Below are positions 1 through 28,397 of a DNA stretch of 28,397 nt, piece by piece. The translations under genes and the position numbers were made by a program. Source of the stretch: a virus (lineage: Duplodnaviria > Heunggongvirae > Uroviricota > Caudoviricetes); IMG/VR virus record IMGVR_UViG_2663762992_000009. One strand, written 5' to 3'. The notes below the pieces were generated by a model. That model had not been told where the DNA came from and searched no databases. It saw only the letters and a program-made list of their open reading frames with translations. Numbering within the stretch: the stretch's first letter is position 1; every line of letters begins with the position of its first letter.

Positions 1-122
1 ACCAGAACCGACACCGCCGAATACCACTTCACCAATTTGCATCAGCCACATCGGCACCATGCCACCGAGAGCGGTAAACGAATCATGCATCGCAATCACC
101 GCGCCACAGGAAGCCGCCGTAG

Positions 123-2891: not shown

Positions 2892-3105
2892 GCCGGGCAC
2901 CTCCCAATAAAACTACTGCATTAAATCACATATGTATTTTAATACAGTAGCTTTGCTGTTTTCATCATTTTCTTATATATCAATACACTGAAGTAATTCG
3001 AGGTTGTTTTTTAACCAAAAAACAAGCCAAAAAAAAACTTTTCATTTCGCGGTTGTACACAGAAAGGAGAAGCGGGGGTCATTTACTGCAAAGGTATTTA
3101 AGTTT

Positions 3106-3459
3106 TTACCCGCCCCTCCCCCTGTTCCAGTGTGAATCGGGGTCAAGCGGGATCCCATCAGCATCACAGCCAGTCATTCTCCCGCTCTTTTCCATACGCT
3201 GTTTGGTTGAGTCGTGATGGGGTTTACATAACCCTTGCCAGTTTCCTCTGTCCCAGAACAGCTTTTGCGCCCGGGAGATATCTGCGGGATTTCCTGTTAT
3301 GAGAGCATCTTTCAACCTGTGTGGCGTGATATGATCGACCACAGTCGCCAGCTCAATCCTTCCCAGTGCCTGACACATAATGCATAAAGGATGTTCGCGC
3401 AGGAATGCCTGGCGGGCTTTACCCCATCTGCTGTCATAGATGCGCGGTTCTTTGTTCAT
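3106..3459 (-). CDS. HNH endonuclease (terminase-associated)
   Basis: 117-aa ORF with Cys pairs (CIMC ... CKPHH) and His residues (VDHITPH) in HNH-like spacing; lies immediately upstream of the small terminase, as is typical for HK97-like cos phages. Confidence 0.8.
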   Translation of the reverse strand: MNKEPRIYDSRWGKARQAFLREHPLCIMCQALGRIELATVVDHITPHRLKDALITGNPADISRAQKLFWDRGNWQGLCKPHHDSTKQRMEKSGRMTGCDADGIPLDPDSHWNRGRGG

Positions 3460-3477
3460 ACCACCATTACCTGTAAA

Positions 3478-3711
3478 TCAGTGCGGACACCGTTCAATCC
3501 TCACTAAGCCGTAAAGCATCTGCCTCTTCACTTCGCCGTTCTCTATGGTCGCGTGGCCATATTCATCACATGCAACAGCGATTACTTCACCTTTCTCATC
3601 ATCAGCAGTGAGCGCGCGCTTAACATCAACACCATCAAGATAGACAGTGTACCGCTCTACTCTGATATCAATCTTCCTGCCGGGATCATCATCTAATACA
3701 GTGAGGCGCAT
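3478..3711 (-). CDS. small hypothetical phage protein
   Basis: 77-aa ORF with normal GC content, same strand as neighbours and tightly spaced before the HNH gene; no family recognised. Confidence 0.45.
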   Translation of the reverse strand: MRLTVLDDDPGRKIDIRVERYTVYLDGVDVKRALTADDEKGEVIAVACDEYGHATIENGEVKRQMLYGLVRIERCPH

Positions 3712-4267
3712 TCCCCCCTCCTTGTTATTTATACGCGTGCAATGCGACTATGATTGCCGCACGTCCCTTGTCGGCATGGACGTTTAGCACGTGCTGGCAT
3801 CGGCGTTGCCCTGTTTGTTGGATAGAAATCATGTTGTACTCGGAGAGAAAAACGGAAATGGCAAATAGTGGACAATATTCATAAATAGAGAGAATCCACA
3901 CGGTCGCCGCCCCGTAACAGGTTGGATCGCATAACAGGCCCCATCAAATGAGAATGAATATCGATTATACTAATTAATGCTTAGAACAGGATCATATACC
4001 TGTATCAGGTCAGTCCACTCTTCACCTAAACGTGCAGATGTGTTAATCCGTCTCCCTGCTTAGCACCACTCTTTTGGTGATATACCCGTTTTGGCATAGT
4101 CGGCGAGAGACTGGTGTTGCAGCACTGTCCAGTCCTGTTTTACCATAAACCCCCTAGTTTTATCTTTTAATTAATAGATATTAGTAAGATGAATCAATGA
4201 TGTGCTCAGAGCAAAGCACATCCTGCGTTGCTTTTAGTGCCATTTAACCTATAGAGAGATATGACGC

Positions 4268-4513
4268 GTGAGAAAGTTAATCTGTCTAATTTCGTTCGTT
4301 GCAACATGCGGATTCGGGTATCAGGCATACCAGCATCATGGACTGGCTTCTCTACTGGCTTTCTTAGTCAGCTTAGGGGCTTTTCTAACTGCTGTAGCCA
4401 ACTTAATAAGTGACAAGAAGAAGTCATCCTCTATAAGCCAAGTGATTGGTAATAACTCTTCAGGAATACAAGTCAGTGGTAATTTAACCATTAATGAAAA
4501 GGACAAAAAATGA
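4268..4513 (+). CDS. small membrane protein (two predicted TM helices), first gene of AT-rich moron
   Basis: GTG start with GAGAG about 9 nt upstream; hydrophobic segments LICLISFVATCGF and LASLLAFLVSLGAFLTAVANLI; visibly AT-rich; stop overlaps the next start (ATGA). Confidence 0.5.
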   Translation: MRKLICLISFVATCGFGYQAYQHHGLASLLAFLVSLGAFLTAVANLISDKKKSSSISQVIGNNSSGIQVSGNLTINEKDKK

Positions 4514-5418
4514 GTCTTTTCGATCATAAGTCGGGTCAACATGTCGGAGATGGTTCTACCGCAATCCAAGTAACCGGTGATGCTATCATTGGTAATACTA
4601 CTACTGAAGTAGTTACTATCTGTGAATTAGTAGTTCAAGCACAAATGGCTTCTTTAAAAGAGGAAGCATATAAACTTGTAAACCAACGAGCGATAGAATT
4701 TGGTAATCAGATTGCAGCTAAACTTTCTAGTGATCTTGATCATAAATTAAAAGAGAAATTATCCGACCCTGACATTCAATATTCGATGAACCAAGCTGTA
4801 ACTCAGGTGGCTCGAAAAGGATTTGATGAAAAATCGGAGTTACTTAAAGAGCTAATCGTTTCTAAAATTCAAACTGAAGAAGAAGAGGATAGTATAGTTA
4901 TAGATCACGCTCTTGAGGTGACATCTAAATTAACAACAAACGACATTAAATTTCTCTCTCTAATATATTACCTCAGAAACATAAATAAGATACGAAACGG
5001 TATTAACATGACAGCTCTTGCTGAAAGAAATGAAACTCACTTTGGATTAATTGGCTTTACCGTAGAGCAAAACCATTCAGCCCACAAAGAATACTATGCT
5101 CGCTATGATATTGATTACATTAAATTCTTAGATAAAATAGAGTCTTTGAGAAAAATAAACATTGATCTCCTCAGCTTAAAAGGCGTTATCTTCACAGACA
5201 AGCAATACATAACAAACTATCAAGACCTACTTGAAAAAAGGACTGGAATCACCAGCTTTGAAAGCGATGAGATGTTCTTTGAAACATTTCCTGCTTTAAA
5301 GTTAACTCTAGATGCATTTGGCGTATCGACCATAAATGACTTTAATTCATATGTTTTAAATCCAATTGGCAACCTGATTGCTCAAAACTTTCTTCGGGCT
5401 CGGAACTTCCTTCAATAG
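4510..5418 (+). CDS. hypothetical 302-aa protein, second gene of AT-rich moron (candidate defence/abortive-infection or conversion function)
   Basis: Long ORF in an AT-rich segment; AAGGA RBS about 8 nt upstream; translationally coupled to the upstream small ORF; opposite orientation to the flanking late genes; no family recognised. Confidence 0.7.
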   Translation: MSLFDHKSGQHVGDGSTAIQVTGDAIIGNTTTEVVTICELVVQAQMASLKEEAYKLVNQRAIEFGNQIAAKLSSDLDHKLKEKLSDPDIQYSMNQAVTQVARKGFDEKSELLKELIVSKIQTEEEEDSIVIDHALEVTSKLTTNDIKFLSLIYYLRNINKIRNGINMTALAERNETHFGLIGFTVEQNHSAHKEYYARYDIDYIKFLDKIESLRKINIDLLSLKGVIFTDKQYITNYQDLLEKRTGITSFESDEMFFETFPALKLTLDAFGVSTINDFNSYVLNPIGNLIAQNFLRARNFLQ

Positions 5419-5597
5419 GATAAAAATTATCGTTTGTAAACATTCGACAGAAAAGGGTATTTTTATTAAGATACCCTTCAAATCCACACTTACTACAAAT
5501 ATATCTATAAAAAATAATTTAATTATCGAGATACATATCATTACATGATGTAGAGCTGAAAACTATTCAGCCCAACTTACATTTATCACATTCATAT

Positions 5598-6170
5598 TCA
5601 TTTAAAATGATTTACAACCTTAACGTCTCTGTCCTTTAACTCCATAATTTTTCCTAGTTGCTTGCGTTCCAACTCAATTTTACTGATACCAGTCAGTTGG
5701 TTATTCGCCTTCTCAATAGTAGCCAGCAGCGGCCCGATCCAGAGAACAGCCTGGCAGTATGTCAGAGAGCTGGCGGTAATGGTGTCACCACCGGCTGCAT
5801 CAGCGTTCCGGGGATCGGGGTACATTGCGCTGGCACGTAAACGGTACGCGTGGTCGAGCAGCCCGTCAGCGATATCAGCAGGAACAGGCAAATCACAGGT
5901 TTTTTCACGACGGAGTATCTCCCGGTATTCAATAACTGTTTTTTCGGAACCGGCATCAATCAGGGAGTTAAGGCGGCTGGTATTATCAGCAACCTGATTA
6001 AACCGGTTAAAGTTGAAAACCTGAGTGGCGATAACCTGCCCCTGTAGCGCGTTATCATTGCGAAGGATCCGGTTATCACTTTCTGATACAGCAAGGTCGG
6101 CCCGGCTGAATACCAGCATAACAACCACAACCAGGAACGAAATTATTGCGATAATCGTTATACGGTTCAT
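5598..6170 (-). CDS. Rz: i-spanin Rz
   Basis: N-terminal TM helix (ITIIAIISFLVVVVMLV) followed by a coiled-coil periplasmic domain; last gene of the lysis cassette; contains an embedded +1-frame lipoprotein ORF. Start placed at the ATG at 6170. Confidence 0.8.
   Translation of the reverse strand: MNRITIIAIISFLVVVVMLVFSRADLAVSESDNRILRNDNALQGQVIATQVFNFNRFNQVADNTSRLNSLIDAGSEKTVIEYREILRREKTCDLPVPADIADGLLDHAYRLRASAMYPDPRNADAAGGDTITASSLTYCQAVLWIGPLLATIEKANNQLTGISKIELERKQLGKIMELKDRDVKVVNHFK
5762..5908 (-). CDS. Rz1: o-spanin Rz1 (lipoprotein embedded in Rz, +1 frame)
   Basis: Embedded ORF with signal peptide and lipobox (LISLTGCS) and a Pro-rich C-terminus. Start placed at GTG 5908 with GGGAGA 9 nt upstream; the ORF-track start at 5959 is an alternative. 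Confidence 0.65.
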   Translation of the reverse strand: MKKPVICLFLLISLTGCSTTRTVYVPAQCTPIPGTLMQPVVTPLPPAL

Positions 6171-6174
6171 GGCT

Positions 6175-6312
6175 CTACCACCAGCGAATCGCCACAATCA
6201 GGCGCGCAATACCATACAGCACAACCGTCAACGCCACAGCCCGTATAGCCCATGCCGTAGCACTACTGATTTCTTTTGTTAACGGAGCATCTATTTCAAG
6301 GCCGTTTTTCAT
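6175..6312 (-). CDS. possible small membrane protein within lysis cassette
   Basis: Short ORF with a hydrophobic C-terminus (AIRAVALTVVLYGIARLIVAI) between the endolysin and Rz; overlaps the Rz start; the start codon is uncertain. Confidence 0.3.
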   Translation of the reverse strand: MKNGLEIDAPLTKEISSATAWAIRAVALTVVLYGIARLIVAIRWW

Positions 6313-6400
6313 AGTCAACCTCAACAGAATTCGTTTATACTTCCTCACAGGGAACACACCTCCCTATACATAATTTCTCCCTTGCTTTCCTCAAGGTGCA

Positions 6401-6450
6401 GAAACAGAAAACCCCGACTGTTTGCCGCAATCGGGGTTTTCGCTTTTAAT
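6401..6450. terminator. bidirectional rho-independent terminator-like hairpin between endolysin and Rz
   Basis: AAAACCCCGA (6408-6417) pairs with TCGGGGTTTT (6431-6440) around a 13-nt loop; T-rich tracts follow the stem on both strands. Confidence 0.5.
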
Positions 6451-6460
6451 ACACGCTCAC

Positions 6461-6883
6461 TTAACCCGCCAGTTCGAGCGCGCGGATAAACGTATCAAAG
6501 CTGTATGGCTGGCTACCGTTCTCGTGCTTAATAATGGCCTGCAACAGCTTCATCATGAAACGACTGTCACTGGTATCAATGCGCTGGTCGGGAGTAACAC
6601 CCGTCGCCTGAGCCACGTTGTTGATATACGCCAGCGTGTTGTTCTCGTTCGGCGGCGCCCAGCGTTTAATAATGCCGGTAACCGTGTTCAGCCCGTGCTT
6701 ACGCTGGTAATTGCGCAGGATGATGATCATCGCCCGGATACCATACTCAGGCGTAGTGAACTGGCAGAATGATTTATCAGTGCGCTGTGCTTTGGGTACC
6801 AGGCCCTGCCACTCATCACCCCACCGGATATTGCCGGGGTTGTTGTTGCGGATCCCGCGAGAAATTTTACTGGTTCTCATCAT
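6461..6883 (-). CDS. putative endolysin (muramidase-like), assigned mainly by position
   Basis: 140-aa ORF immediately after the holin, start overlapping the holin end; soluble, no TM segment; motif RNNNPGNIR. No similarity to lambda R or T4 lysozyme recognised by eye. Confidence 0.55.
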   Translation of the reverse strand: MMRTSKISRGIRNNNPGNIRWGDEWQGLVPKAQRTDKSFCQFTTPEYGIRAMIIILRNYQRKHGLNTVTGIIKRWAPPNENNTLAYINNVAQATGVTPDQRIDTSDSRFMMKLLQAIIKHENGSQPYSFDTFIRALELAG

Positions 6884-7202
6884 TTATCCCTGCCCGTTTT
6901 TTAAGCGCACTGATGGCAATTTCACGTAATTTATCCACGCCGACGAAGCCAATCACGCCACCGACAAAGGGTGATATCGATACAGGAAGGCCAAACGCAT
7001 CCAGCGCACTGGTGATACATAAAGAAAGGGCGCCACAAAGGACGCCCTCAAGCCATTTATTTTTTCGCGTGACGCCATCGTATATCAGGCGGGCATAAGC
7101 AATGAGTCCGGCCATTGATGCCCCCAGTAACTGGGGCCACGCATTTTTGAGTCCGGTCAAAACCGCCGCCCAGAATTCAGGGTTTTTGTCATTCATTTTC
7201 AT
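6867..7202 (-). CDS. class I holin, lambda S-like, with dual-start motif
   Basis: C-terminal region resembles lambda S as recalled (LDAFGL ... GFVGVDKLREIAISALKKRAGINDENQ); hydrophobic helices; starts MKM (ATG at 7202 and 7196), like the lambda S107/S105 dual start; SD-like GGTGAGG upstream. Confidence 0.8.
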   Translation of the reverse strand: MKMNDKNPEFWAAVLTGLKNAWPQLLGASMAGLIAYARLIYDGVTRKNKWLEGVLCGALSLCITSALDAFGLPVSISPFVGGVIGFVGVDKLREIAISALKKRAGINDENQ

Positions 7203-7243
7203 ATACCTCACCCCCGGTTTCCGGATGGTGCTGTGTACTGGTG

Positions 7244-7268
7244 AAAAAATTCAGCCTTCCGGGCTGAG
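7244..7268 (-). terminator. candidate intrinsic terminator between tRNAs and holin (minus strand)
   Basis: Hairpin TCAGCC (7251-7256) / GGCTGA (7262-7267) with a 5-nt loop; on the minus strand it is followed by a run of six U. Confidence 0.45.
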
Positions 7269-7467
7269 TATGCTGCAGATCTGAATACGAAAAAGGCCAC
7301 GCAAATGCGCAGCCTTTATAACGCGAGTTTTATTATTCGGAGGCACTCCATCCAACAAACCACCCATGGTTGCCAGGATTTTAACGGAGTGCTTTTGGAT
7401 GAGCGCTGGACCGGAAGGTCAGTATTTTTACACAGCAATTTTGCAAAAAGCAGCGCCCATTCAAAAC

Positions 7468-7543
<76 letters not shown>

Positions 7544-7546
7544 TTT

Positions 7547-7623
7547 TGGTGGCCCTTGCTGGACTTGAACCAGCGACCTGGCGATTATGAGTCGCACGCT
7601 CTGACCAACTGAGCTAAAGGGCC
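7547..7623 (-). tRNA. tRNA with CAU anticodon (Ile2-lysidine type or Met)
   Basis: Full cloverleaf on the minus strand: acceptor GGCCCTT/AAGGGCC, D-arm GCTC/GAGC, anticodon loop CTCATAA, T-arm GCTGG-TTCAAGT-CCAGC, CCA end; closely resembles the E. coli ileX sequence as I recall it. Confidence 0.85.
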
Positions 7624-7630
7624 ATGACGC

Positions 7631-7737
7631 TGCGGTGCCGGACCGCTATTATTCCGGTAGATTGCGCGCTGATACACAATCTGCTTCGCGAAAATTCTCC
7701 ATTTCAGCAAGCCTCAACGCTAGTGAGATTCACCGCA
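7631..7737. repeat. repeat unit A (~100-nt element with complementary termini TGCGGTG...CACCGCA)
   Basis: Shares 5' end tgcggtgccgg and 3' end cgctagtgagattcaccgca with the units at 8860-8963 and 9074-9166; abuts the tRNA-Ile gene. Confidence 0.7.
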
Positions 7738-7938
7738 ATGAGAAAAATTTATCGTCCGCAGATTCTGGCAGGCAAGGCCTCTTCCAAATAAATTACTCAA
7801 AATGCGAAACTGCGCACGGAGAATTAAACCTTCAAAAAGCTAAGACATCACACTTGACCGGTTCAGAAAAAAATCATTATGTTCTTTCTGCTTCTCCCAT
7901 GAAGCGACCTCAATTATTTTCTGCTTATGTGTGATTTT

Positions 7939-7966
7939 GCCCGTTCTGTATGACGGGCTTTTTTCA
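7939..7966 (+). terminator. rho-independent terminator hairpin, plus orientation (element copy 1)
   Basis: GCCCGT (7939-7944) / ACGGGC (7953-7958) with an 8-nt loop, followed by TTTTTT; the preceding ~45 nt resemble the element at 9328-9400. Confidence 0.6.
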
Positions 7967-8014
7967 ACGTCATCATCCCTGTTCATTAAATGTGTATTCA
8001 TCCATCCAGGTTTA

Positions 8015-8449
8015 CTAATTCCATACAGTTCCCCTGGCGACCGAATAACGCCCTGCCCCCAGTAATGCAACTGACAGAGAGCCAACAAAAAAATACACCA
8101 GGCTTTCTATTCCCCACGCGCCAGTACTTTCGAGCATCCATGTTTCCTCTACCCCCACCAGAAGCCAGGCCACAATCATTGTAAAAGCCAGCAACAGTGC
8201 TGCGGGGCGAGTAAGAACCCCAAGAATAATCAGGCCTGGAGCCAAAACCTCTCCCACAATTGCTCCGTATGCGAAAAATCCAGGTAAGCCGTTAGCTATA
8301 AGCATGCCGCTAATACCTTCAACTCCTGCAAAGAGCTTATGCAAACCATGAAATAACATCAGCCCACCAACAGCAAGTCTTAACAGGAACTTACCAAAGT
8401 CAGCATGGGATAAGATCTGGTTAATTTTATTCAGTACGATAGTAATCAT
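8015..8449 (-). CDS. DoxX-family inner-membrane protein (cargo gene in the Q-to-lysis region)
   Basis: 144-aa ORF with four hydrophobic segments and a DoxX-like N-terminus (FGKFLLRLAVGGLMLFHGLHKL); GGAG SD 9 nt upstream of the ATG at 8449. Confidence 0.7.
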   Translation of the reverse strand: MITIVLNKINQILSHADFGKFLLRLAVGGLMLFHGLHKLFAGVEGISGMLIANGLPGFFAYGAIVGEVLAPGLIILGVLTRPAALLLAFTMIVAWLLVGVEETWMLESTGAWGIESLVYFFVGSLSVALLGAGRYSVARGTVWN

Positions 8450-8859
8450 TGTTCATCACTCCAAGTAAAAAAGGAATGAGAAAAACAAATCACCAGCAGG
8501 CTACAACAGTCAATCTGTTCGGCTGTAAATCACAAACAAGTTAAATAGACTGTTAACACCCACCCTACCTGAATTATTACGCCAAAAAAGGAGATAAAGC
8601 GATAAATCTTATTAGCATGTAACTATTGTTCAACTCAATAGAGCCCATACACTAAGTTTTATTGCCCCTAATAATCCGATGACCAACAGAATGATGCTAA
8701 TTAAGAATACCTGATTCGTTGTAAATCTGATACTGCGTAAATATGCCTTTAGAGCATTAGCAGTTCTGTATTTATTCTGCATTTTCCCGCTCAGAAATCA
8801 CATCAATGACCAATTTAAAAGTAGAGCCCGAATAATCTATCTCCACGACCCGATATGAG

Positions 8860-8963
8860 TGCGGTGCCGGTCGCAACCCGGTGAAACGTATCCATGGTGT
8901 GGTGCAATACATACTGGCAGAATGAATAGTGCCACACCCCTCACGCTGGTGAGATTCACCGCA
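8860..8963. repeat. repeat unit B
   Basis: Same conserved termini as unit A. Read on the minus strand it shows a 7-bp terminal helix, a D-arm-like hairpin (CTCA-CCAGCG-TGAG), a long central hairpin and a T-arm-like hairpin (CCGG-GTTGCGA-CCGG). Confidence 0.7.
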
Positions 8964-9073
8964 GGAGGTAACGTATAAACGGCAGGTGCTTTAGATCAAG
9001 CTTTTTATCATGTCGGCGAAATGAAAAAGGGCTCACCGAAGTGAGCCCTGAATTACCGCCGTTTTCAATTTGC

Positions 9074-9166
9074 CGCAGTGCCGGGTGCCTCCCGATGGTA
9101 TTAACCGCAACGTCAACAGTGGAAGCGAAACCTGACGATGCCCCTACGCTAGTGGGATTCACTGCA
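9074..9166. repeat. repeat unit C (more diverged copy)
   Basis: 5' end gcagtgccgg and 3' end cgctagtgggattcactgca match units A and B with a few substitutions. Confidence 0.6.
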
Positions 9167-9372
9167 ACGGGGGGAACCTATTACCCGCAGACAGCGGCTG
9201 ACAAGATATTTATTTTGCTGAAATGCCAAAATGTGAATCTGCGCATATGAAATTAAACAGAACTTAAACAATTGCAGATACGAACTTGATAGGTTTATGA
9301 AGAAATTACTACGGTCCTCAGGCTTCCCCCTATGAAGCACTTAAGCCTCTTACCTTTTCCAATTGTGATTTT

Positions 9373-9807: not shown

Positions 9808-10347
9808 TCACACATTCCTATCAATGGAATCCCGTAGCGGGATATAAAGCATGTATTCAACCATATACAGCCATTGGTCGATTCGTCGCCGACAGGTAAC
9901 ATAACTCCAGTCAGGGTATTTTTCCTGAAGTTTCTCAGCTATCTTTCGCTTACTCATTCCCCGTCCTTCGTAACGCTGGTGAAGCAGTGCCTTTAGTGCG
10001 GGATGATCTGCCAGAACTGCCCCGATAACCCGGTCGATTATCAGTGCTTCAGAATCAGTACAGTATGCAAGGTAGCTTTTCTGCTTACCGTTCAATATCT
10101 CACGTAAAAATTGCTCCAGTTCAGGCCTGGTAGTGCCTGATTTTTTAAGCAGCCTGAGCGCATCACGGGCGCCTGTGCGGGTGATTTTTTTACTGACCAG
10201 CAACTGATTGAAGATATTTCCCGGATGGCCATTTCCGATATAAGACCAGCGCCCCCACATTCTTAGCTTTCCCTGTACCCATAACGTCTCAAGCGTAGTG
10301 AGACGAAGCATTTCACCAGGTTTACCTGTCGTGACCGGGTAGATCAT
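9808..10347 (-). CDS. late-gene antiterminator Q-like protein
   Basis: 179-aa ORF immediately upstream of the tRNA/lysis region and after the nin genes; basic C-terminal region with HTH-like character (KRKIAEKL ... RRRIDQWL); start overlaps the upstream gene's stop. Confidence 0.75.
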   Translation of the reverse strand: MIYPVTTGKPGEMLRLTTLETLWVQGKLRMWGRWSYIGNGHPGNIFNQLLVSKKITRTGARDALRLLKKSGTTRPELEQFLREILNGKQKSYLAYCTDSEALIIDRVIGAVLADHPALKALLHQRYEGRGMSKRKIAEKLQEKYPDWSYVTCRRRIDQWLYMVEYMLYIPLRDSIDRNV

Positions 10348-10634
10348 ACTAATCCCTCCTCTCTCCAGATTTGTTGCGTACGCATTACGCCTTCGGCATG
10401 CATTAACCGAAGTTCGGTGCGGGTAAAGTCTGTTGTTTTTATCCGGCCATCAATCAGGTCATGACAACAGCTACAGGCAATAGATGCCTGCATATCGTTG
10501 GGTTTGGTTGATGCTCCACAGGTACCGGCCAGACGGTAATGGGCCAGAACCGAGGTTTCAGGGTTATGGTTACAGTATCCGGGAATTCTCACCTGGCACT
10601 GCCGACCTTTAGCTGCTTTACGTAACCCGGACAT
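10344..10634 (-). CDS. YbcO-like (DUF1364) nin-region protein, putative nuclease
   Basis: 96 aa; Cys-rich pattern (CQVRIPGYCNHNPETSVLAHYRL ... IACSCCHD) closely resembles E. coli DLP12 YbcO as I recall it. Confidence 0.75.
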   Translation of the reverse strand: MSGLRKAAKGRQCQVRIPGYCNHNPETSVLAHYRLAGTCGASTKPNDMQASIACSCCHDLIDGRIKTTDFTRTELRLMHAEGVMRTQQIWREEGLV

Positions 10635-11233
10635 CAGGCGAACTCCAGCAACTGCATCGCTACATTTTCAGCTTCCTGTGGTGTTCTGAATTTTCGACAG
10701 AGGATGAAATTCCACAGGACGTTAAAGACATCCTTATAGAATTGCCGGAACGTATCTTCATCCATACGGGAGAAAGAAATAGATTTGGGAATTCTGCGGC
10801 GACAATTATCCGGGAGAACAACTTCATCGAAGTAACCAGCCTGAACCGTCACCCATGCCCGGTATGGCTCGAAAGACTTCAGTAAGGCAACATCCCCAGT
10901 ACGTAACTGCCCTTCTTTCAACAGAAATTCATCCGCTGCGGAGGTTAAAACATCACCGTATTGATGACCGGACATCTCAACAAGATAAGTGACAAAGCGA
11001 TTTATCAGCGAAAGTTCATCTGGTGAAAGCACACCACCGACAGGTGTCCAGTAATCGAAGCCCAGTTGCAGAAGTTTGAAGAAACGCTTATGAAAGGCGT
11101 AGTTGCGGACACGTCTGAAATCAGCGTGTATCCACTCGCCAGTTTTGACTGAATGTACAAAGCCCTCACTCTCCGGTGTTGCCGGGAGCAGGATCCCTGA
11201 TGCGGTCTGTTTGACCAGTTGTAAGTGCGCCAT
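10634..11233 (-). CDS. conserved lambdoid nin-region protein (DUF1367-like, tentative)
   Basis: 199-aa ORF of normal GC, start/stop-coupled to the YbcO-like gene; family assignment is from memory only. Confidence 0.55.
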   Translation of the reverse strand: MAHLQLVKQTASGILLPATPESEGFVHSVKTGEWIHADFRRVRNYAFHKRFFKLLQLGFDYWTPVGGVLSPDELSLINRFVTYLVEMSGHQYGDVLTSAADEFLLKEGQLRTGDVALLKSFEPYRAWVTVQAGYFDEVVLPDNCRRRIPKSISFSRMDEDTFRQFYKDVFNVLWNFILCRKFRTPQEAENVAMQLLEFA

Positions 11234-11415
11234 CGTTGCTCCGGTGGCGCGACAGGTTGTCAGTTGTTCAGGCTGACGTGGGGATTATAAGCCAATCCGG
11301 GATGATTCGGTAGTATGACAAGAGTTTCTTTATGCTTCGAACTGTACTGGATCAGACTCTAATTGACAGTCTGCTTTGAGCAGGTTGGCTACCGAAAATT
11401 TGGCGATTTAGATCG

Positions 11416-12456
11416 TCATCGAACATTCGGTGATATTGCTATCTTTAGATCACTAGTAAGCATCGCGGCCTGCTTTTCTAAAGCCTCTAACATAAAATCT
11501 GTTTTGTCTTGTATCCTAACGAGTAAATAGAATGGTTCACTACTCGTACAGGTTAAACGTGATGTTGTAAAGTCATCACGGTGAGGTATTAATGCGCGAT
11601 AATTTCCTTCAGCGATAAACATAAAGCGAGCATTAGGATGTTCACTGAGCCACATATACTTATTCCTGCAAAAGAAAGTATCGCGTGTGTCATACTTCAT
11701 GGCAAATCCAAAACCGACTTTTATGATGGATAACGTATGTATACTAAATGCAACATATGAAATGCAGCCAATAAGAAATAATGGGACGAAAACTGACATT
11801 AAATAGTTATTATCATCATCAGTTGGCGTTACTTTCCTTTTCTTTACTTTTGAGGGCATCAATATTAAACAAATAATGCAAACAAGGTAAATGATGCAAT
11901 ACAATATAAAAATAAAAAGTAATGCTACAACTGCCGTCATGAGTTTATTGAATGTAGCATCAAATGGAATGTCAAACAAATTGGAAATTAGCGAGCGTGC
12001 AATATAATATGAAATTAATGATACAATTACCCACACATATTTAATTCCCAGGTTAATTTTTATGGCTATGTTTTTTTCTTCATTATCGAACGATTTTATG
12101 TGAGATGATATTGTGTATGTAATACACAATATCGTCACAAAAGCCAATGTATATGGAATGATGGTATTTATATAACCAATAACGTTAAAGGAAACAATTG
12201 TTAATAAAAACAGAAATACCGACAACAGTGCGGCATCTTGCGTTTTTTTATAATTTTTTCGAAGGCGAACGGCCTGTTGACTGGATGACTTTTTATTCCA
12301 ATTATTTTGTACGATTAATCCGCTGAGAATAATCATACCAAACCAAATAAGAATGGGGTATACAGGATCACTCTGAGGTATGATGACGAGCACTGCCATA
12401 AAAAACAATAAACTGTGAACAATCCCGAGGTGTAAGGAAGAGTATATACTTTTCAT
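11416..12456 (-). CDS. AT-rich polytopic membrane protein with C-terminal soluble domain (cargo; candidate superinfection-exclusion/defence protein)
   Basis: 346-aa ORF, strongly AT-rich; about seven hydrophobic segments in the first ~230 aa, then a ~110-aa hydrophilic tail; AAGG SD upstream of the ATG at 12456; about 180-bp gaps on both sides. Confidence 0.7.
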   Translation of the reverse strand: MKSIYSSLHLGIVHSLLFFMAVLVIIPQSDPVYPILIWFGMIILSGLIVQNNWNKKSSSQQAVRLRKNYKKTQDAALLSVFLFLLTIVSFNVIGYINTIIPYTLAFVTILCITYTISSHIKSFDNEEKNIAIKINLGIKYVWVIVSLISYYIARSLISNLFDIPFDATFNKLMTAVVALLFIFILYCIIYLVCIICLILMPSKVKKRKVTPTDDDNNYLMSVFVPLFLIGCISYVAFSIHTLSIIKVGFGFAMKYDTRDTFFCRNKYMWLSEHPNARFMFIAEGNYRALIPHRDDFTTSRLTCTSSEPFYLLVRIQDKTDFMLEALEKQAAMLTSDLKIAISPNVR

Positions 12457-12603
12457 CGATGACCTTTTTAATAATGGGTTATTCTATTGGAATTAGAAAA
12501 ACCACCAGCAGGCCATTACTGTCAAGCCCGGACGCTGTCTGTTTTATCCGTAGCACACGTACATAAACGCGCCATCCGAACCACGATGGCGCGACAGTAC
12601 ATC

Positions 12604-12774
12604 TTACAGTTGGTCAGACTTTCCTTCAGGGCGTATCAGCTCGTCCCGTGATTCAGGCGTTATTACAATCTGATGACTCAGCAATGGCACGACCACGAAC
12701 TCACCAGAACTGAGTACGTATACAAGATATCTGCCAGGAACTTTCAACATTCTCAACAGTTCATCTGTATTCAT
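12604..12774 (-). CDS. small hypothetical protein (56 aa)
   Basis: ATG at 12774 preceded by GGAG with 8-nt spacing, inside the longer ORF-track frame; lies between the membrane protein and the next small ORF. Confidence 0.3.
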   Translation of the reverse strand: MNTDELLRMLKVPGRYLVYVLSSGEFVVVPLLSHQIVITPESRDELIRPEGKSDQL

Positions 12775-12900
12775 ATTTTTGCTCCGTTGGTTAACAGATT
12801 CCCTTTCGGGAGCATTCCCTTTCATCCCTGTGCACAATCTTTTTAAAACAGTGCCGGTACGCGCATACAGGTTTGTTAGAATGTCTGTTAATAGAGCAAA

Positions 12901-13107
12901 TCAGATATCACTCTCCCCAAGGCTCCTGCATTCAAAGTTCTCCAGTTTCACATGTTCACCGGCAGTACGGCCCGCCTCTTTAGGCTTATAAAAACGCATT
13001 TCGCACTGTTTCTGGGTCAGTCTGGTTTCGGAGTAAAATGACCAGGCCACAGGCGGATTGCCTGCTTTATGGATAGTTGCTGTAATTTTGTATTTTTTCC
13101 CTTTCAT
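12901..13107 (-). CDS. small hypothetical protein (68 aa)
   Basis: ORF-track frame on the same strand as its neighbours; weak SD; no family recognised. Confidence 0.3.
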   Translation of the reverse strand: MKGKKYKITATIHKAGNPPVAWSFYSETRLTQKQCEMRFYKPKEAGRTAGEHVKLENFECRSLGESDI

Positions 13108-13222: not shown

Positions 13223-13963
13223 TCATTCGGTACTAAGCCCCTGCCACAACGCCCTGTTACCAGGTTTATGCACTTGCCGGGAAATCTCACGGCACTTTTT
13301 CAGACGTTTCAGTTTTGCTTCCGTCCTGCGAATTTCAGCGCTGATCGCCCGTGGTGTAGGGATGACAACGTCGTCGTGCCGCCGTTCTGTGAATGACGGT
13401 ATCGACTGAATAAGGTCTGCAACGTTATCTGTTGAGGCTTCAGCAGCAGTTACTGATGCCGCTAACTTTATTGCTTCAGGTTGCGGCGCAGGATTATCGT
13501 CGCGCCCCATGGCTGAACAGGCTTTCTGTTTCTCCGGTAAACCATCATCAGGCAGACTGTAACGAAACTTGCCATCATGATTAATCCGCAAAAGACGCCC
13601 CTTTCCCGTAGCCATCGCCAGCGTGGAGGCAACCTTCCTGGCTGTTGTGCTGAAGCGCCTGGACAGTTCATCCGCCGTCTGTGGGCCGTGTTTTCGGATA
13701 GCGTCTGTCAGCTGCTTCTCATCGATTTTCATAACCGTTTCCACTGGTGTTACAGGGTTCACTATTTTTTCTTTGGCAACGTCAGTCAGTTCCTTTTCCG
13801 GTCCGGACAGAGACCAGTAGCCGTTCAGGAATATCACCCTGCCTGAGTCTTCCTGCTCACGCAGCATTTCCAGAACATCTTTTGTCTCGATGAGCAGGCG
13901 TGCTGCGACCTCGCGAGCAGTGGCTTTTCCCATCGCTTTCAGTGCATCAGTCACTGTTTCCAT
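13223..13963 (-). CDS. hypothetical phage protein with two winged-helix-like segments
   Basis: Start placed at the ATG at 13963 with a strong SD (CAGGAGA, 9-nt spacing) just after the DnaC-like stop; two helix-turn-helix-like stretches (TAREVAARLL..., TADELSRRFSTTARKVA...). Confidence 0.55.
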   Translation of the reverse strand: METVTDALKAMGKATAREVAARLLIETKDVLEMLREQEDSGRVIFLNGYWSLSGPEKELTDVAKEKIVNPVTPVETVMKIDEKQLTDAIRKHGPQTADELSRRFSTTARKVASTLAMATGKGRLLRINHDGKFRYSLPDDGLPEKQKACSAMGRDDNPAPQPEAIKLAASVTAAEASTDNVADLIQSIPSFTERRHDDVVIPTPRAISAEIRRTEAKLKRLKKCREISRQVHKPGNRALWQGLSTE

Positions 13964-13986
13964 TGACAATTTCTCCTGTGATTCAG

Positions 13987-14727
13987 TCAGGGCCGGTTGA
14001 CGTTTTTTCGCCAGCTTTCCCAGCCAAAATTTACCCATCGGCCACCGTTCATGGACATTCTGTCCATCACCCGCTGACCTGCCAGCTTAGTCAGTGCATC
14101 ATGGTTCAGGTTGGTCAGCATTCCGACGCTGCGCAGGGATGCGGTCCGGCGATCAACAATCTGGTGCAGGATGACCTGCTCGTTGCGTGTCTCACGCTGC
14201 ACACCAACCTCATCAAGGATCAGCAGGTCCACTCCGCACAGCTCCTTCAAAAATTTTTCACCCGAATTTCCATCATCGTACCCGGCATGAAGCGCACTCA
14301 TCACGTCGGCGACGGTGATAACAATCACACTGCGTCCGGCGTTCATCAGGCGGTTACCTATGGCGGCGGCCAGATGATTTTTGCCGGTACCAGGCTTACC
14401 GCTGAACACAAAATTTGTACAACCGGTATCCAGTTCAGCAGCTATGGATTTGGCCTGGCTGAGCGCATGCTTCTGGCCGTCATTCTGCACCCGGTAATTC
14501 TTGAACGAGCATCTGCGATGCAGTGGCTGAATACCGGCCCGACCGAAGATTTTTTCGGCCCTGGTCTGGCGGTTAAGTCGGTCAATTTCCTCGCAGCGTC
14601 TGCGCCCTTCGGCTAGCTGCCATTCCCGCCACTCCCCCGGCGTCCGGAACGGTGCGGAACTGTTGGCCGACCGTGGCGCCAGTTTCCTGATGCGGGCCAG
14701 AATCCCGGTATCTGCGATGTTTCTCAT
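13987..14727 (-). CDS. DnaC-like helicase loader / replication protein (IstB-like AAA+ ATPase; YdaV-like)
   Basis: 246 aa; Walker A (GKPGTGKNHLAAAIG) and Walker B (LLILDEVG) motifs; follows the DUF1376 replication gene. Confidence 0.85.
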   Translation of the reverse strand: MRNIADTGILARIRKLAPRSANSSAPFRTPGEWREWQLAEGRRRCEEIDRLNRQTRAEKIFGRAGIQPLHRRCSFKNYRVQNDGQKHALSQAKSIAAELDTGCTNFVFSGKPGTGKNHLAAAIGNRLMNAGRSVIVITVADVMSALHAGYDDGNSGEKFLKELCGVDLLILDEVGVQRETRNEQVILHQIVDRRTASLRSVGMLTNLNHDALTKLAGQRVMDRMSMNGGRWVNFGWESWRKNVNRP

Positions 14728-14733
14728 GGCTTG

Positions 14734-15651
14734 TCACCCCCTGAAACCCGGTGGAATGGTTGTGTCCGGTGGCGAAATATCCTGAATCCTGGTCGGGCTG
14801 TCGCGGCCACGATTGCCTCCCCGGTCCTGGTCTTTTGCCAGCCAGCCGGTGATAAATTTCCTGATGCCTCGGGCGGTTTTTCGTCGTCGTCGTTCGCTGA
14901 GCAGCCATCCGCGCTGATTACGCAGTGCCTGCCGGACGTCGACCGCCGGATACAGCGTCTCAAACTCGACAACCATCGATTCGGTCACGGAAAATTCAGA
15001 ACCGTCGTTGAGCGGAAGCCGAATAAACTCAGGGTCATCAGGCGGTGTTGATGGCACACCAGCGCTCAGAGGCCGACGCTCAGGTCCGACATGGGCTGGT
15101 CCGGTACCATCGGGCAAACTCGCACCCTGTGACCCGAAATTTTCATCCAGTTGCGTGGGGCTGATTTTTTCAGCTCCGCGCAAGAGGTTTTGATCTTTTA
15201 GATCTGTTTCTTTATCTTTATCTGGATCTTTATTAGTTGCCTTTGTGTTGGGCTCCTGTTCAAACACAGAACCAACACCTGTTGAACATGTGTTATTTTC
15301 GCTGGCAGATTGTGCTTCCTTCCTGTTCCTTCTTGACTGAACAGATGCTTTTCCTGCTGCAGACTTTTTCGCTAAGGTTTCCCTGACCGAATGAAGATCA
15401 TCTTCAATACGCTTGTGAACCCACTCCGTGCCGTTATCAGTAAAAAATTCTCTCAACGACTCTTCTACGGCTCCCCAACGCTCACTGCTAACCCGGGCAA
15501 TCTTTGCCAGCCTGTTTTTCGGTATAGCCCTTCCGGTCTGCCAGTAATTGAACATCAGCAGTAAATAGGCCCCATGCTCCTCGGTTGAAAGATGCATTGT
15601 GTCAGCCAAGTAATCAGCGATATAAAGCTGCATGTATGGAAGTGCCGCCAT
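14734..15651 (-). CDS. replication initiation protein with N-terminal DUF1376 (YdaU-like) domain
   Basis: N-terminus YMQLYIADYLADTMHLSTEEHGAYLLLMFNYWQ is characteristic of DUF1376; long acidic/disordered middle; directly precedes the DnaC-like gene; GAGG SD upstream. Confidence 0.8.
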   Translation of the reverse strand: MAALPYMQLYIADYLADTMHLSTEEHGAYLLLMFNYWQTGRAIPKNRLAKIARVSSERWGAVEESLREFFTDNGTEWVHKRIEDDLHSVRETLAKKSAAGKASVQSRRNRKEAQSASENNTCSTGVGSVFEQEPNTKATNKDPDKDKETDLKDQNLLRGAEKISPTQLDENFGSQGASLPDGTGPAHVGPERRPLSAGVPSTPPDDPEFIRLPLNDGSEFSVTESMVVEFETLYPAVDVRQALRNQRGWLLSERRRRKTARGIRKFITGWLAKDQDRGGNRGRDSPTRIQDISPPDTTIPPGFRG

Positions 15652-25949: not shown

Positions 25950-27197
25950 ATGGCTGCTTTACCAACAGGTGTAGAAATCAGAGGTAGTAGCATCTGTATC
26001 TGGTTTATGTACAGAGGAAAACGTTGCCGCGAAACTCTCAGAGGATGGAGCATAACACCTGCTAATATCAGAAAAGCAGGTAATCTGCGCTCAATTATCG
26101 TCAGTGAAATCAACATGGGCGAGTTCGACTACCAGACTCGCTTCCCATCCTCCAAAAAAGCAATAAAAATTGTCACTACGGTTTCAGTCAGAACTCTAGG
26201 CGAACTCTGTGATCTGTGGCTGTCGATAAAAGAGACTGAACTGGCGGCTAACACCTTGCGCAAAACCAGCTCGCAGCTCGACACGCTGAAATTCATTATC
26301 AATAAAAACACGCCACTTTCGACGATTCGCCACAGCGACATTCTGAACTACCGCAACGAGCTGCTAAACGGAGAGACAAATTACCGAAACGCCACGAGAG
26401 GAAATAAAACCGGCCGTACCGCGCGCACGGTTGATAATTACATTTCCCTGCTCTGCTCCCTGCTCCGTTTTGCGCAGCACTCAGGGTTTATTAAGCACAA
26501 ACCTTTTGAGGGGGTTCGGAAGCTGCAAAAAGCCCGGATCAAACCGGACCCGCTCACAAAGCAGGAGTTTGCACAGTTGATGGAAGCAGAATACGGCCAG
26601 AGCCAGAATCTGTGGAAATTTGCAGTATATACGGGCCTTCGTCATGGTGAACTTGCTGCGCTGGCGTGGGAGGATGTGGATCTCGAGGCGGGAACAGTCA
26701 GCGTGTGCCGTAATCTGACCATTATCGGTACCTTCGGGCCGCCAAAGACAGATGCAGGCTACCGGACAATAAAGCTGCTGGAACCTGCGTTGGAAGCGTT
26801 GAAAGCACAGCGTGAACTTACCGCCCTCCAGCCAAAGTCAAAAATCGTTTTTAACCACCGTGAATATGGAAGGACAGAAACCCAGCGCGTGCACTTTGTT
26901 TTCATGCCAAGGATGCGTAAAGGCGAGCAAAAACCGTATTACAGCGTATCGAGCATCGGGCACCGTTGGAACGCTGCCGTAAAACGTGCTGGCATTCGTC
27001 GTCGGAATCCATATCACACACGGCATACTTTCGCCTGCTGGTTGTTATCCGCCGGTGCAAACCCGTCGTTTATCGCAAGTCAGATGGGACATGAAAATGC
27101 ACAAATGGTTTATGAAGTATATGCAACATGGATGGATGATATGAACAAAGATCAAATTGAACTAATTAATAGAAACTTACTAAACTCTTTATTTTAA
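25950..27197 (+). CDS. int: tyrosine site-specific integrase (lambda/Rac IntR-like)
   Basis: 415 aa; N-terminal arm-binding-like region (LPTGVEIRGSSICIWFMYRGKRCRETL); catalytic signature GLRHGELAAL ... HTRHTFACWLLSAGANPSFIASQMGH ... VY (R, H-x-x-R, Y). Confidence 0.9.
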   Translation: MAALPTGVEIRGSSICIWFMYRGKRCRETLRGWSITPANIRKAGNLRSIIVSEINMGEFDYQTRFPSSKKAIKIVTTVSVRTLGELCDLWLSIKETELAANTLRKTSSQLDTLKFIINKNTPLSTIRHSDILNYRNELLNGETNYRNATRGNKTGRTARTVDNYISLLCSLLRFAQHSGFIKHKPFEGVRKLQKARIKPDPLTKQEFAQLMEAEYGQSQNLWKFAVYTGLRHGELAALAWEDVDLEAGTVSVCRNLTIIGTFGPPKTDAGYRTIKLLEPALEALKAQRELTALQPKSKIVFNHREYGRTETQRVHFVFMPRMRKGEQKPYYSVSSIGHRWNAAVKRAGIRRRNPYHTRHTFACWLLSAGANPSFIASQMGHENAQMVYEVYATWMDDMNKDQIELINRNLLNSLF

Positions 27198-28397
27198 GAA
27201 AGATGATATAAACATCGTACAATTCAAAATCAGATTACTGAATGATAATGCCGACACTAAACCGAATATTTTATATAACGTGTTACATTGAGAATCCAAT
27301 GCATTCTCTTTTTTATTAAGCTCCGTCAACTCTAACTTTTTCAACTCATCACGCATTGTCCTAAAAAGAACACTATACTCTGACTGACATTCTTGCACCA
27401 ATACTTTTTGATAATTTGTAAGATAATATATGGTGAACGTCGTATATAAAGAAAGAACTATAGCTGCCATATTTAAAACCCACGAGTTTACATTATCAAA
27501 TTTCCCCATGGCAGCAAAACTGATTATTCCAGATATAGGAATGGCAAGTGACCTTGTAAGGGTGTCATACATTATGGAATTGAGTTTAGATAAATAATCC
27601 CTGAATTTCTCTTGGTACTCCTTTCTTATTTTTTCAAAACTAAACCCGACCGTAAACGAAAGGTAATTTTCTTGGAAAATCCGTGAGAACAATGTAAAGT
27701 CGGTTAAAATTTTTGAAAGTCGATCTTCTTTCTTTACTCTCCATAAAAAAGAGAACAATACGTTCTGTAGAATGTGTTTTTTCTCCTGTTCATGCAAGAG
27801 GTCAGAGAATAATTTTTCAAAACTTGAAAACCCATCAAATTCGTAAGCTAAATCTTCAAATTTATAGTTAAGATCTAAATACAATTTATTTTTTGATAAA
27901 AACAACAACTCTCTCCCGTTCTCCCCATCAGAACAATCTGTAAGTATTTTCCAAATTTTCGAAACTTGAAAATACCGTAATATTTCATTCCGGTTATAAT
28001 CATCAGGACAAATTGTGCATTTTCCTTCATTCGTAGTTGATGAAATTAAAATAAACCGATTACCAGCAAGAGGTCTATTTGCAACCAGCTCTTTTTCATC
28101 ATAAAAAACTTCGATCTGCCCTCTTAACCTGTCAAGGTTCATGCTGACAATAAAATATTTTACCCCTCCACTTTGCAGCATTGAGGGAGAATCGGACCAA
28201 GCGTGAAAATTACGTTTATAAATTTTAGAATTAAGTTCTACTTCATATTGAGGTTCCAGTAGGTATTGCTCACTACGTTTAAATGCGAGATCAAATACTT
28301 CCTGCTCAAATTGAAGTTCTAAAGTAAGAAAGCCATTATCGTATCCCATTATTTTGGATTTATTTAATATCTCCTTTATATTTTCAAAGCTTACCAT
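27189..28397 (-). CDS. AT-rich hypothetical protein with C-terminal TM helices, convergent with int (N-terminus at or beyond window edge)
   Basis: 402-codon ORF, strongly AT-rich; 3' end overlaps the int stop by 9 nt; C-terminal hydrophobic segments (AIPISGIISFAAMG, WVLNMAAIVLSLYTTFTIYYL, IFGLVSALSFSNLIL); ORF runs to the last base of the window. Confidence 0.7.
   Translation of the reverse strand: MVSFENIKEILNKSKIMGYDNGFLTLELQFEQEVFDLAFKRSEQYLLEPQYEVELNSKIYKRNFHAWSDSPSMLQSGGVKYFIVSMNLDRLRGQIEVFYDEKELVANRPLAGNRFILISSTTNEGKCTICPDDYNRNEILRYFQVSKIWKILTDCSDGENGRELLFLSKNKLYLDLNYKFEDLAYEFDGFSSFEKLFSDLLHEQEKKHILQNVLFSFLWRVKKEDRLSKILTDFTLFSRIFQENYLSFTVGFSFEKIRKEYQEKFRDYLSKLNSIMYDTLTRSLAIPISGIISFAAMGKFDNVNSWVLNMAAIVLSLYTTFTIYYLTNYQKVLVQECQSEYSVLFRTMRDELKKLELTELNKKENALDSQCNTLYKIFGLVSALSFSNLILNCTMFISSFLK

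Follow-up and report, generated by a model that had tools for sequence, protein, structure and literature searches.

The window analysed here, the whole 28,397-nucleotide (nt) stretch of the IMG/VR virus record IMGVR_UViG_2663762992_000009, is a Rac-like lambdoid prophage of Escherichia coli, and its nin region carries a cassette of ~1.1-1.2 kb with a single gene that was recombined into the start of ninB in the early-right operon. The gene encodes a protein of 346 amino acids (aa) from an uncharacterised family with no detectable relatives, and the product is predicted to be an orphan inner-membrane protein with a cytoplasmic N-terminus and with its C-terminal domain and functional surface in the periplasm. 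As an element it is of a familiar kind, namely moron-like cargo of the nin region that encodes a membrane protein. A role in keeping incoming DNA out of the cell is proposed tentatively below. The cassette and its borders consisted of the following features, listed in the direction of transcription.

12503..12654, minus strand: repeat copy A, a decayed second copy of the element upstream of ninB and of the first ~20 ninB codons (repeat search and alignment with three real ninB starts)
12568..12593, minus strand: strong hairpin in repeat copy A with a 9-bp stem (7 G-C), a terminator-like score and only a short U tract
12457..12499, minus strand: cassette 5' leader kept in the window copy, with the conserved Shine-Dalgarno (SD) region AAAAAGGTCATCG-ATG (upstream alignments)
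11416..12456, minus strand: coding sequence of the 346-aa membrane protein (open reading frame (ORF) listing, hydropathy, family alignments and AlphaFold2 model)
11360..11415, minus strand: conserved 3' flank common to the Citrobacter and CPS-53-like copies (downstream alignments)
11195..11308, minus strand: repeat copy B, which spans codons 1-13 of ninB and the functional element upstream of that gene, with a TATAAT that three phages conserve and the SD/AUG hairpin at 11227-11251
10634..11233, minus strand: ninB (DUF1367 / NinB-Orf recombination mediator; Pfam 1.6e-75, PHROG 319), the intact neighbour outside the cassette

The insertion was recorded in a repeat of the ninB start. A local alignment of 12654..12527 with 11308..11195 gave 79 matches, 33 mismatches and three gaps, with a score of 27 against 9.3 +/- 1.3 in shuffled sequences (0 of 2000 shuffles scored as high), while the extension of copy A from 12527 to ~12503 was seen in one alignment only, that with the real ninB starts of E. 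coli and Citrobacter prophages. Copy A retained a pseudo-start ATG at 12574 ('ATGGCGC...') followed by a 10-nt insertion and then, on translation, by a frameshift and a stop, and it overlapped the 3' end of an upstream 56-aa ORF described below. As diverged ninB-start copies lie on both sides of the ~1.2-kb segment (~12526..11309), the cargo entered by recombination within the first ~20 codons of ninB, with a complete ninB restored behind it. Homology to other E. coli prophages began at ~11305, and a related E. coli prophage that shares the backbone carried DUF977, DUF551 and hokD in this slot instead. The initial annotation of this DNA had described gaps of ~180 bp on both sides of the gene. 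The gap towards ninB was indeed 182 bp (11234-11415), although the upstream one was 147 bp (12457-12603) and is a dead ninB start, the decayed duplicate, rather than free intergenic DNA.

The hairpin at 12568..12593 folded at -23.8 kcal/mol (z = -4.6), compared with -14.6 to -16.4 kcal/mol for the real ninB starts of three phages, and derives from the ninB-start hairpin that holds the SD and the AUG. It was considered as a tR-like intrinsic terminator, and this candidate was dropped because the hairpin is better explained as the counterpart of the one at the ninB start. In the real ninB-start hairpins (window 11227-11251; locus L036, ~4049-4073; locus L027, ~12580-12606) the loop contained the GGAG SD and the 3' arm the AUG, and the TATAAT ~55 nt upstream of ninB was also conserved in the three prophages. 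Together, this hairpin and the TATAAT could control translation and provide an internal promoter for ninB-Q.

A repeat search identified no convincing inverted repeats or att-like sites flanking the cassette, and Rfam and tRNA scans of the cassette region returned nothing. Megablast of the region and the surrounding 10 kb against 5,426 complete E. coli genomes and 50,697 phage records found essentially no match, as did blastn of the stretch comprising the DUF1187 gene and the 56-aa ORF, and tblastn of the membrane protein and of the 77-aa form of that ORF found no match in the 50,697 phage records. Since close matches were missing from these searches, the exact empty site could not be shown and the related backbone mentioned above was used instead.

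The membrane gene differed in composition from everything around it. Its GC content was 33.8% and its GC content at third codon positions (GC3) was 0.33, while the window averaged 46.9% over windows of 1041 nt (47.3% for the window minus the gene), the gaps beside the gene had 47-48% GC, and NinB, DUF1627, the small ORF and DUF1187 ranged over 45-52% GC with GC3 of 0.45-0.51. The gene was within the lowest 2.5% of the 1041-nt windows (z = -2.45) and the low-GC block at ~11462-12547, as determined in 300-nt windows, corresponded to the membrane gene alone. The AT-richness is therefore real and more than chance. The initial annotation had described an AT-rich island made up of the membrane gene and two small downstream ORFs. 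The membrane gene itself is AT-rich; however, the small ORFs had a normal 45-46% GC, both lie upstream in the direction of transcription, and they never travel with the membrane gene, being absent from every other context of its family, with the 56-aa gene found in this prophage only. Independent acquisition, which had also been suggested, was strongly supported by the bracketing ninB-start repeat, by mobile homologues that have 30-36% GC in any host, and by the solitary occurrence of the gene in diverse elements.

Assignment of the neighbouring genes by Pfam and PHROG agreed with the position first given to the gene, between the replication genes and NinB/YbcO/Q. The other genes of this part of the window, again in the direction of transcription, were as follows, and RecE/RecT and an integrase are encoded on the plus strand further along the window.

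minus strand: YdaT, first in minus-strand order and before the DUF1376 replication gene
14734-15651, minus strand: DUF1376 replication protein
13987-14727, minus strand: DnaC/IstB-like loader
13223-14038, minus strand: DUF1627
12901..13107, minus strand: DUF1187 gene of 68 aa (Pfam PF06688, 1.3e-18; GC 0.459), an ordinary prophage gene
12604..12774, minus strand: small phage gene, listed as a 77-aa ORF to a TTG at 12837 (PHROG 34610 match over residues 22-64 only; GC 0.449)
10344-10634, minus strand: YbcO
9808-10347, minus strand: Q-like DUF1133 protein

The ORF listed as 77 aa is most likely a 56-aa gene that starts at the ATG at 12774 behind a GGAG SD, because the gene calls at two of the six loci shown (L003 and L006) give 56 aa and because its PHROG match spans the residues given above only. 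The longest ORF of DUF1627 (271 aa) shared 52 nt with the end of the DnaC-like gene (13987-14038), its start is uncertain, and calls of 246 aa and 271 aa alternated among other assemblies. YbcO, which is intact in the window at 96 aa, was present as two pieces in different frames in draft-genome copies L001-L006 (~11820-12106) in what looks like a frameshift.

The suggestion in the initial annotation that the gene might have its own promoter was true of the family but not of the window copy. Seven copies from seven contexts had ~100 nt of upstream sequence in common, including a TGnTATAAA extended -10 element at -51/-55 from the ATG, with TTCCnA 16-17 nt above it in six of the seven. Homology of the window copy to the other cassettes began ~43 nt before the ATG, with the junction at ~45 nt, so that the position of the promoter was taken by ninB-derived sequence and TGnTATAAA was absent; no sigma-70-like site was found in the 200 nt upstream of the gene. 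A TTGACA at 12527-12522 was considered as a -35 element and was dropped because no -10 element was located at 16-18 nt. DNA homology to the CPS-53-like copy was confined to ~11392..12488. The conserved SD (AAAAAGG) was retained in the window copy. At the other end, no terminator-like site was found between the stop codon (11416) and ninB, and the conserved 3' flank had no stem plus U tract. The Citrobacter copy is convergent to the early operon and would therefore require its own promoter there. As the promoter element was lost at the junction, the window copy is probably transcribed by read-through of the early-right operon. Judged from these sequence features, expression most probably combines read-through transcription of the sense-oriented phage operon with translation from the gene's own conserved SD.

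The family to which the protein belongs is small. A word-indexed protein search found 31 clusters at 90% identity, a second such search with a diverse alignment added almost nothing, and an exhaustive profile search found only 34 clusters among 1.84 billion representatives. Full-length members were 310-390 aa with the same architecture, shorter matches were fragments, and all members checked for their source organism came from Enterobacterales. No relative was found in Pfam, PHROG, PADLOC or NCBIfam, with Pfam and NCBIfam scanned for 29 diverse members, and a literature search for six protein accessions gave no result. A related-locus search with a shallow alignment identified four genome loci and five viral loci. 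The same prophage carried the gene in E. coli draft genomes and IMG/VR contigs. The window copy was 99.7% identical, with one indel, to six retrieved loci (five NCBI E. coli assemblies and one sequencing-run assembly, with many more contigs indexed), and two IMG/VR viral contigs included identical fragments of the membrane gene. The protein in the draft-genome copies L001-L006 was 345 aa compared with 346 aa in the window, owing to the one-residue indel.

Mobile homologues were solitary genes with 35-77% identity in ~15 contexts, and among prophages alone the gene was found at three different positions. The contexts included the following.

Citrobacter braakii lambdoid prophage: beyond Q, in convergent orientation to the early operon
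CPS-53-like E. coli prophages: between an xis-like gene and int
Shimwellia island: beside a prophage integrase
Integrative and conjugative elements (ICEs) of Pectobacterium, Symbiopectobacterium and Brenneria: edge of the type IV secretion system module
IncF plasmids: between stbAB and relBE, including p948 of enterotoxigenic E. coli H10407
hly/ibrAB-type E. coli loci: homologue present, with 48%-identical copies on two large E. coli plasmids as well
Pantoea plasmids: homologue present
Cedecea island: homologue present
Chromosomal sites: Salmonella Kentucky, Kosakonia and Jejubacter (after ychF)

The copies of the mobile branch that were measured had 30-36% GC within flanks of 41-51%. Every copy was intact, and pairwise ratios of nonsynonymous to synonymous substitution (dN/dS) were 0.26-0.44, so that the membrane gene is under purifying selection of a relaxed, fast-evolving kind. 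In the C. braakii prophage (L027, 13755-16562) the slot from DUF1627 to ORF6N/NinB held ~4.8 kb of mixed-strand cargo, which by sequence appearance only included an apparent RelE/ParE-type toxin-antitoxin pair, a HigA-like gene and a GNAT acetyltransferase.

The most distant members, from Cronobacter and from Enterobacteriaceae bacterium YMB-R22, were chromosomal and located at a syntenic site next to ydbK(PFOR)-ydbJ-hslJ-ldhA-ydbH. This branch was 12-19% identical to the window protein and had an ameliorated, host-like composition of 50-53% GC with GC3 of 0.60-0.64, and one Cronobacter cluster member was found on 864 contigs. The initial annotation had named homology to a transporter or housekeeping membrane protein in a conserved core-genome context as a result that would speak against its interpretation. 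Such a context was found for the distant ydbK branch but not for the mobile branch to which the window gene belongs. Homology to a named family was not seen, with nothing consistent in Pfam, NCBIfam or a PDB sequence profile search.

The ORF listing and hydropathy agreed with the initial description of a 346-aa protein with about seven N-terminal membrane segments and a tail: seven hydrophobic segments fell within residues 8-238, and the tail was 108 aa. An AlphaFold2 model made from a diverse alignment had a predicted local distance difference test score (pLDDT) of 85 and a predicted template modelling score of 0.75, while a model from a shallow alignment was poor (pLDDT 58.8) and was not used, indicating that model quality depends on alignment diversity. 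The model featured seven transmembrane (TM) helices (~residues 8-238), an amphipathic helix at 241-256, a four-to-six-stranded sheet at 261-314 and a C-terminal helix at 318-341. The segment at 241-256 was considered as an eighth TM helix and dropped, as it is charged and too short and lacks hydrophobicity in other members of the family. In a set of 29 members, the N-terminus and loops 2-3, 4-5 and 6-7, predicted to be cytoplasmic, had a mean of 15.2 Lys+Arg residues, and loops 1-2, 3-4 and 5-6, predicted to be periplasmic, had a mean of 2.1. This strong positive-inside bias over seven TM helices points to an N-in, C-out arrangement with the C-terminal domain of ~108 aa in the periplasm, and the cytoplasmic tail of ~110 aa first described is most likely wrong.

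Conservation was concentrated in the parts predicted to face the periplasm. The best-conserved segments were loop 5-6, the C-terminal domain and TM5, the only invariant residues across the family were C263, R287 and C303, and D162 (loop 5-6), F261, Y267 and Y286 were nearly invariant. The C-terminal domain had exactly two Cys residues in all 29 members, and the C263/C303 pair probably forms a disulfide. The TM helices were poorly conserved and had no catalytic-type residue in common across the family, which speaks against an enzyme or transporter. Foldseek of the AlphaFold model, as had been recommended, returned only noise from the PDB and BFVD, with a best PDB match at an E-value of 0.13 and a TM-score of 0.2; a weak Ivy-like match (E-value 1.5) was disregarded.

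Defence or candidate defence genes were neighbours of the family in three of the ~15 contexts. In a compact defence island of Cedecea (L028, 8536-14186) the gene was the only thing between PDC-S02 (Mrr-like, 8.8e-83) and PDC-M01A/B (Septu-like, 3e-248 and 2.7e-129). On the Pantoea plasmids (L040/L026, ~1-9308) it was located between PDC-M60A-C and a GajA-like ATPase (5.7e-126), and in the Brenneria ICE an HNH nuclease was adjacent to it and Avs3 (1967 bits) was ~4 kb away. The Pantoea ATPase is truncated-looking, with 396 aa that match the N-terminal ~370 positions of GajA models of ~620-630 positions. The three-gene PDC-M60A/B/C set includes a PNP/PN-superfamily effector and looks Detocs-like.

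We propose, with low confidence, that the product is a non-enzymatic envelope protein that would protect the cell carrying the element from incoming DNA by superinfection exclusion. The periplasmic domain may bind a component of the DNA-delivery apparatus of the invader, or a host factor used by that apparatus, and binding at the interface of the periplasm and the inner membrane would then exclude the incoming DNA. An exclusion or defence function is suggested by the cargo positions in four classes of mobile element, the defence neighbours, the fast evolution and the periplasm-facing conserved surface, with the inner-membrane exclusion proteins gp15 of HK97 (PMC3594210) and SieA of P22 (PMC10883804) as precedents. 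The initial annotation had likewise pointed to superinfection-exclusion or abortive-infection cargo, which is a plausible guess. Taken as a whole, and with the well-supported anatomy of the insertion included, this is a tentative reading that falls short of being likely. In a more specific form of it, which we regard as rather doubtful, the family would be a hitherto unrecognised module of defence or exclusion in Enterobacterales, made of one gene whose membrane product faces the periplasm. The module would have come from a chromosomal ydbK-adjacent gene and would circulate among prophages, ICEs, plasmids and defence islands as a promoter-equipped AT-rich cassette, with a seven-TM scaffold and a probably disulfide-bonded sensor or blocker domain.

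Several results weigh against exclusion. The association with defence genes comprises three of the ~15 contexts, and the contexts in Jejubacter (after ychF), Kosakonia and Salmonella Kentucky were without defence neighbours. Defence-system annotation, recommended in the initial annotation, matched the membrane protein to none of the PADLOC-DB 2.0.0 families at E <= 1. There was no similarity to a known superinfection-exclusion family such as those of SieA, SieB, gp15, Imm, Sp, Cor and Llp, or to a known abortive-infection or defence family, in PADLOC, PHROGs, Pfam or tblastn of the 50,697 phage records, nor was any solved or viral predicted structure similar in the Foldseek searches of the PDB and BFVD. 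Known superinfection-exclusion membrane proteins are also much smaller than 346 aa. As the window copy has no recognisable promoter, its expression from a repressed prophage, which classical exclusion needs, is doubtful. The resident chromosomal branch in Cronobacter, with its host-like composition, suggests a cellular rather than an anti-phage role for at least that branch.

The last point leads to an alternative that we consider rather doubtful and rank second to exclusion, namely that the family is a cellular envelope protein active in membrane homeostasis, stress response or as a signalling partner, whose ancestor was located next to ydbK and whose mobile copies confer a fitness trait unrelated to phages and plasmids or are neutral passengers. 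The syntenic branch at the ydbK site, its host-like GC content and its very wide distribution in Cronobacter (the member on 864 contigs) are consistent with this, as are several mobile-branch copies that are flanked by ordinary chromosomal genes and have no defence genes nearby. However, the mobile branch stays at 30-36% GC in every host, recurs within defence islands and among the cargo of prophages, ICEs and plasmids, and evolves fast (dN/dS as above), and the absence of the family from most Enterobacterales argues against a general housekeeping role. It is also conceivable, though unlikely, that the window copy in particular is a silent or decaying passenger whose promoter was lost at insertion, which sits behind a strong hairpin and gives the lysogen no phenotype; this would be independent of the function of the family. 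The missing family promoter element, the 200 nt upstream with no sigma-70-like site and the hairpin at -23.8 kcal/mol would fit such a passenger, but the ORF is intact and 99.7% identical in six other E. coli loci, its SD is conserved, and its sense orientation in the early-right operon together with a hairpin that has no proper U tract makes read-through likely, at least after induction.

The defence-island neighbours, the distribution as mobile-element cargo and the conservation concentrated on the periplasmic face would equally suit a single-protein abortive-infection system, in which the periplasmic domain senses an envelope perturbation and the seven-helix bundle permeabilises or depolarises the membrane so that the cell is killed or arrested, and one gene is a fitting architecture for a sensor joined to an effector. 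This seems improbable, given that no PADLOC model was matched, membrane effectors included, that the TM sequences are poorly conserved with no conserved pore-lining polar residues, and that no toxicity signal such as an adjacent antitoxin was present in any context. More improbable still is an orphan immunity protein whose periplasmic domain would neutralise a toxin that acts in the periplasm or on the membrane (a bacteriocin, or a type VI secretion system or contact-dependent effector): a small, periplasm-facing and probably disulfide-bonded domain on a membrane anchor, rapid evolution and a narrow distribution on mobile elements are as would be anticipated, yet no toxin gene was adjacent in any of the ~15 contexts and no known immunity family in Pfam or NCBIfam was similar. 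Least probable, and very much so, is a lysogenic-conversion enzyme such as a GtrC-like glucosyltransferase, a Wzy-like polymerase or an acyltransferase, which would alter a surface polysaccharide and hence a phage receptor. The protein is polytopic, AT-rich and phage-borne, one copy adjoins int in a CPS-53-like prophage, which is a typical neighbourhood for conversion genes, and the conserved acidic residue D162 is in a periplasmic loop. Against this, no context included gtrA/gtrB or a sugar-pathway neighbour, none of the 29 members had a Pfam or NCBIfam match, no GT-C, acyltransferase or other membrane-enzyme fold was found in the PDB, and the conserved positions were mostly in the small C-terminal domain rather than in catalytic motifs of the TM helices and loops.

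Morons have been described as autonomous accessory units in phage genomes, that is, extra DNA of differing composition with its own promoter and terminator and with expression from the prophage (PMC3594210). The cassette is extra DNA between conserved genes with a composition unlike that of its neighbours (GC 33.8%, GC3 0.33), and a promoter of its own is present in the family, whereas the window copy has neither its own promoter nor its own terminator. An envelope location, which is a feature of known superinfection-exclusion proteins, is predicted here from the seven TM helices and the positive-inside bias. The HK97 moron product gp15 is a small inner-membrane superinfection-exclusion protein that is expressed from the prophage and has YebO relatives; its homologues occur in Enterobacteriaceae only, many of them on the chromosome rather than in phages, which suggested capture of a cellular gene (PMC3594210). 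The gene described here is similarly an inserted lambdoid accessory gene of foreign composition with a predicted inner-membrane product, and the chromosomal relatives of gp15, including YebO, parallel the Cronobacter branch. Unlike gp15, which is small and encoded in the tail operon, the protein has 346 aa, seven TM helices and a periplasmic domain; there was no sequence relationship (0 matches in PHROGs), and the window copy differs from morons as a class, which are described as having a promoter of their own, in that it has no recognisable one.

SieA of P22 has 162-164 aa and three predicted TM helices, with its most conserved motif predicted to be cytoplasmic (PMC10883804), and for both SieA and gp15 the proposed site of action is the periplasm, where the DNA-delivery conduits of phages assemble (PMC10883804, PMC3594210). 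Like SieA, the product is a prophage-encoded polytopic inner-membrane protein with highly divergent sequence types. It differs in its seven TM helices and periplasmic-side conservation and has no sequence similarity to SieA, and while sieA occupies one locus in P22-like phages, the present gene moves among prophages, ICEs and plasmids. In position it resembles the hokD, DUF977 and DUF551 cargo of Rac/Qin-like prophages, which occupies the same variable slot (DnaC-like, DUF1627, [cargo], DUF1367, YbcO/DUF1364, DUF1133). The gene content is unrelated, however, as hokD encodes a type I toxin of ~50 aa compared with a polytopic protein of 346 aa inserted inside ninB.

KwaA of Kiwa, ZorA/B of Zorya and RexB are membrane proteins of defence islands or prophages that have been proposed to sense or act at the envelope. 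The family resembles them as a membrane protein with defence-island neighbours, in three contexts; these proteins work with partner genes, whereas the present gene was always solitary and had no PADLOC match.

Other elements of interest in the window included a second AT-rich block at 4358-5793 (GC ~0.32-0.36), which contained a 302-aa ORF (4510..5418, plus strand) on the strand opposite to its lysis and packaging neighbours. This ORF had no match in the Pfam and PADLOC scans, although a precomputed table lists PF28206 (Vpar_1526) for an identical gene, and it is a candidate for another moron. A third AT-rich block (26973-28397, GC 0.31-0.35) was located just past the integrase gene (25950-27197), and its ORF (27189..28397, minus strand) had at least 402 aa, reached the end of the window and had no Pfam or PADLOC match. 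Between Q and the lysis genes an Rfam match to the STnc100 small RNA (66 bits) was located at 9018-9195 on the minus strand. A tRNA-Met (7547-7623, minus strand), a second partial tRNA-like match (7479-7536, minus strand) found by Rfam and not by ARAGORN, and a gene for a DoxX membrane protein (8015-8449) were also present.

If the protein does block phage or plasmid DNA, a new and structurally unrelated family would be added to the few known inner-membrane exclusion proteins, and the ~100-aa periplasmic domain with its invariant Cys pair and Arg and its near-invariant Asp would be the experimental handle. If it is a cellular envelope factor instead, the gene would be an ordinary hypothetical-protein moron. 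The family includes both promoter-equipped and promoter-less copies, which provides a natural side-by-side comparison. Whatever the function, the locus cleanly illustrates the insertion of cargo through lambdoid mosaicism, with a decayed pseudo-start left behind and the promoter of the cargo stripped away.

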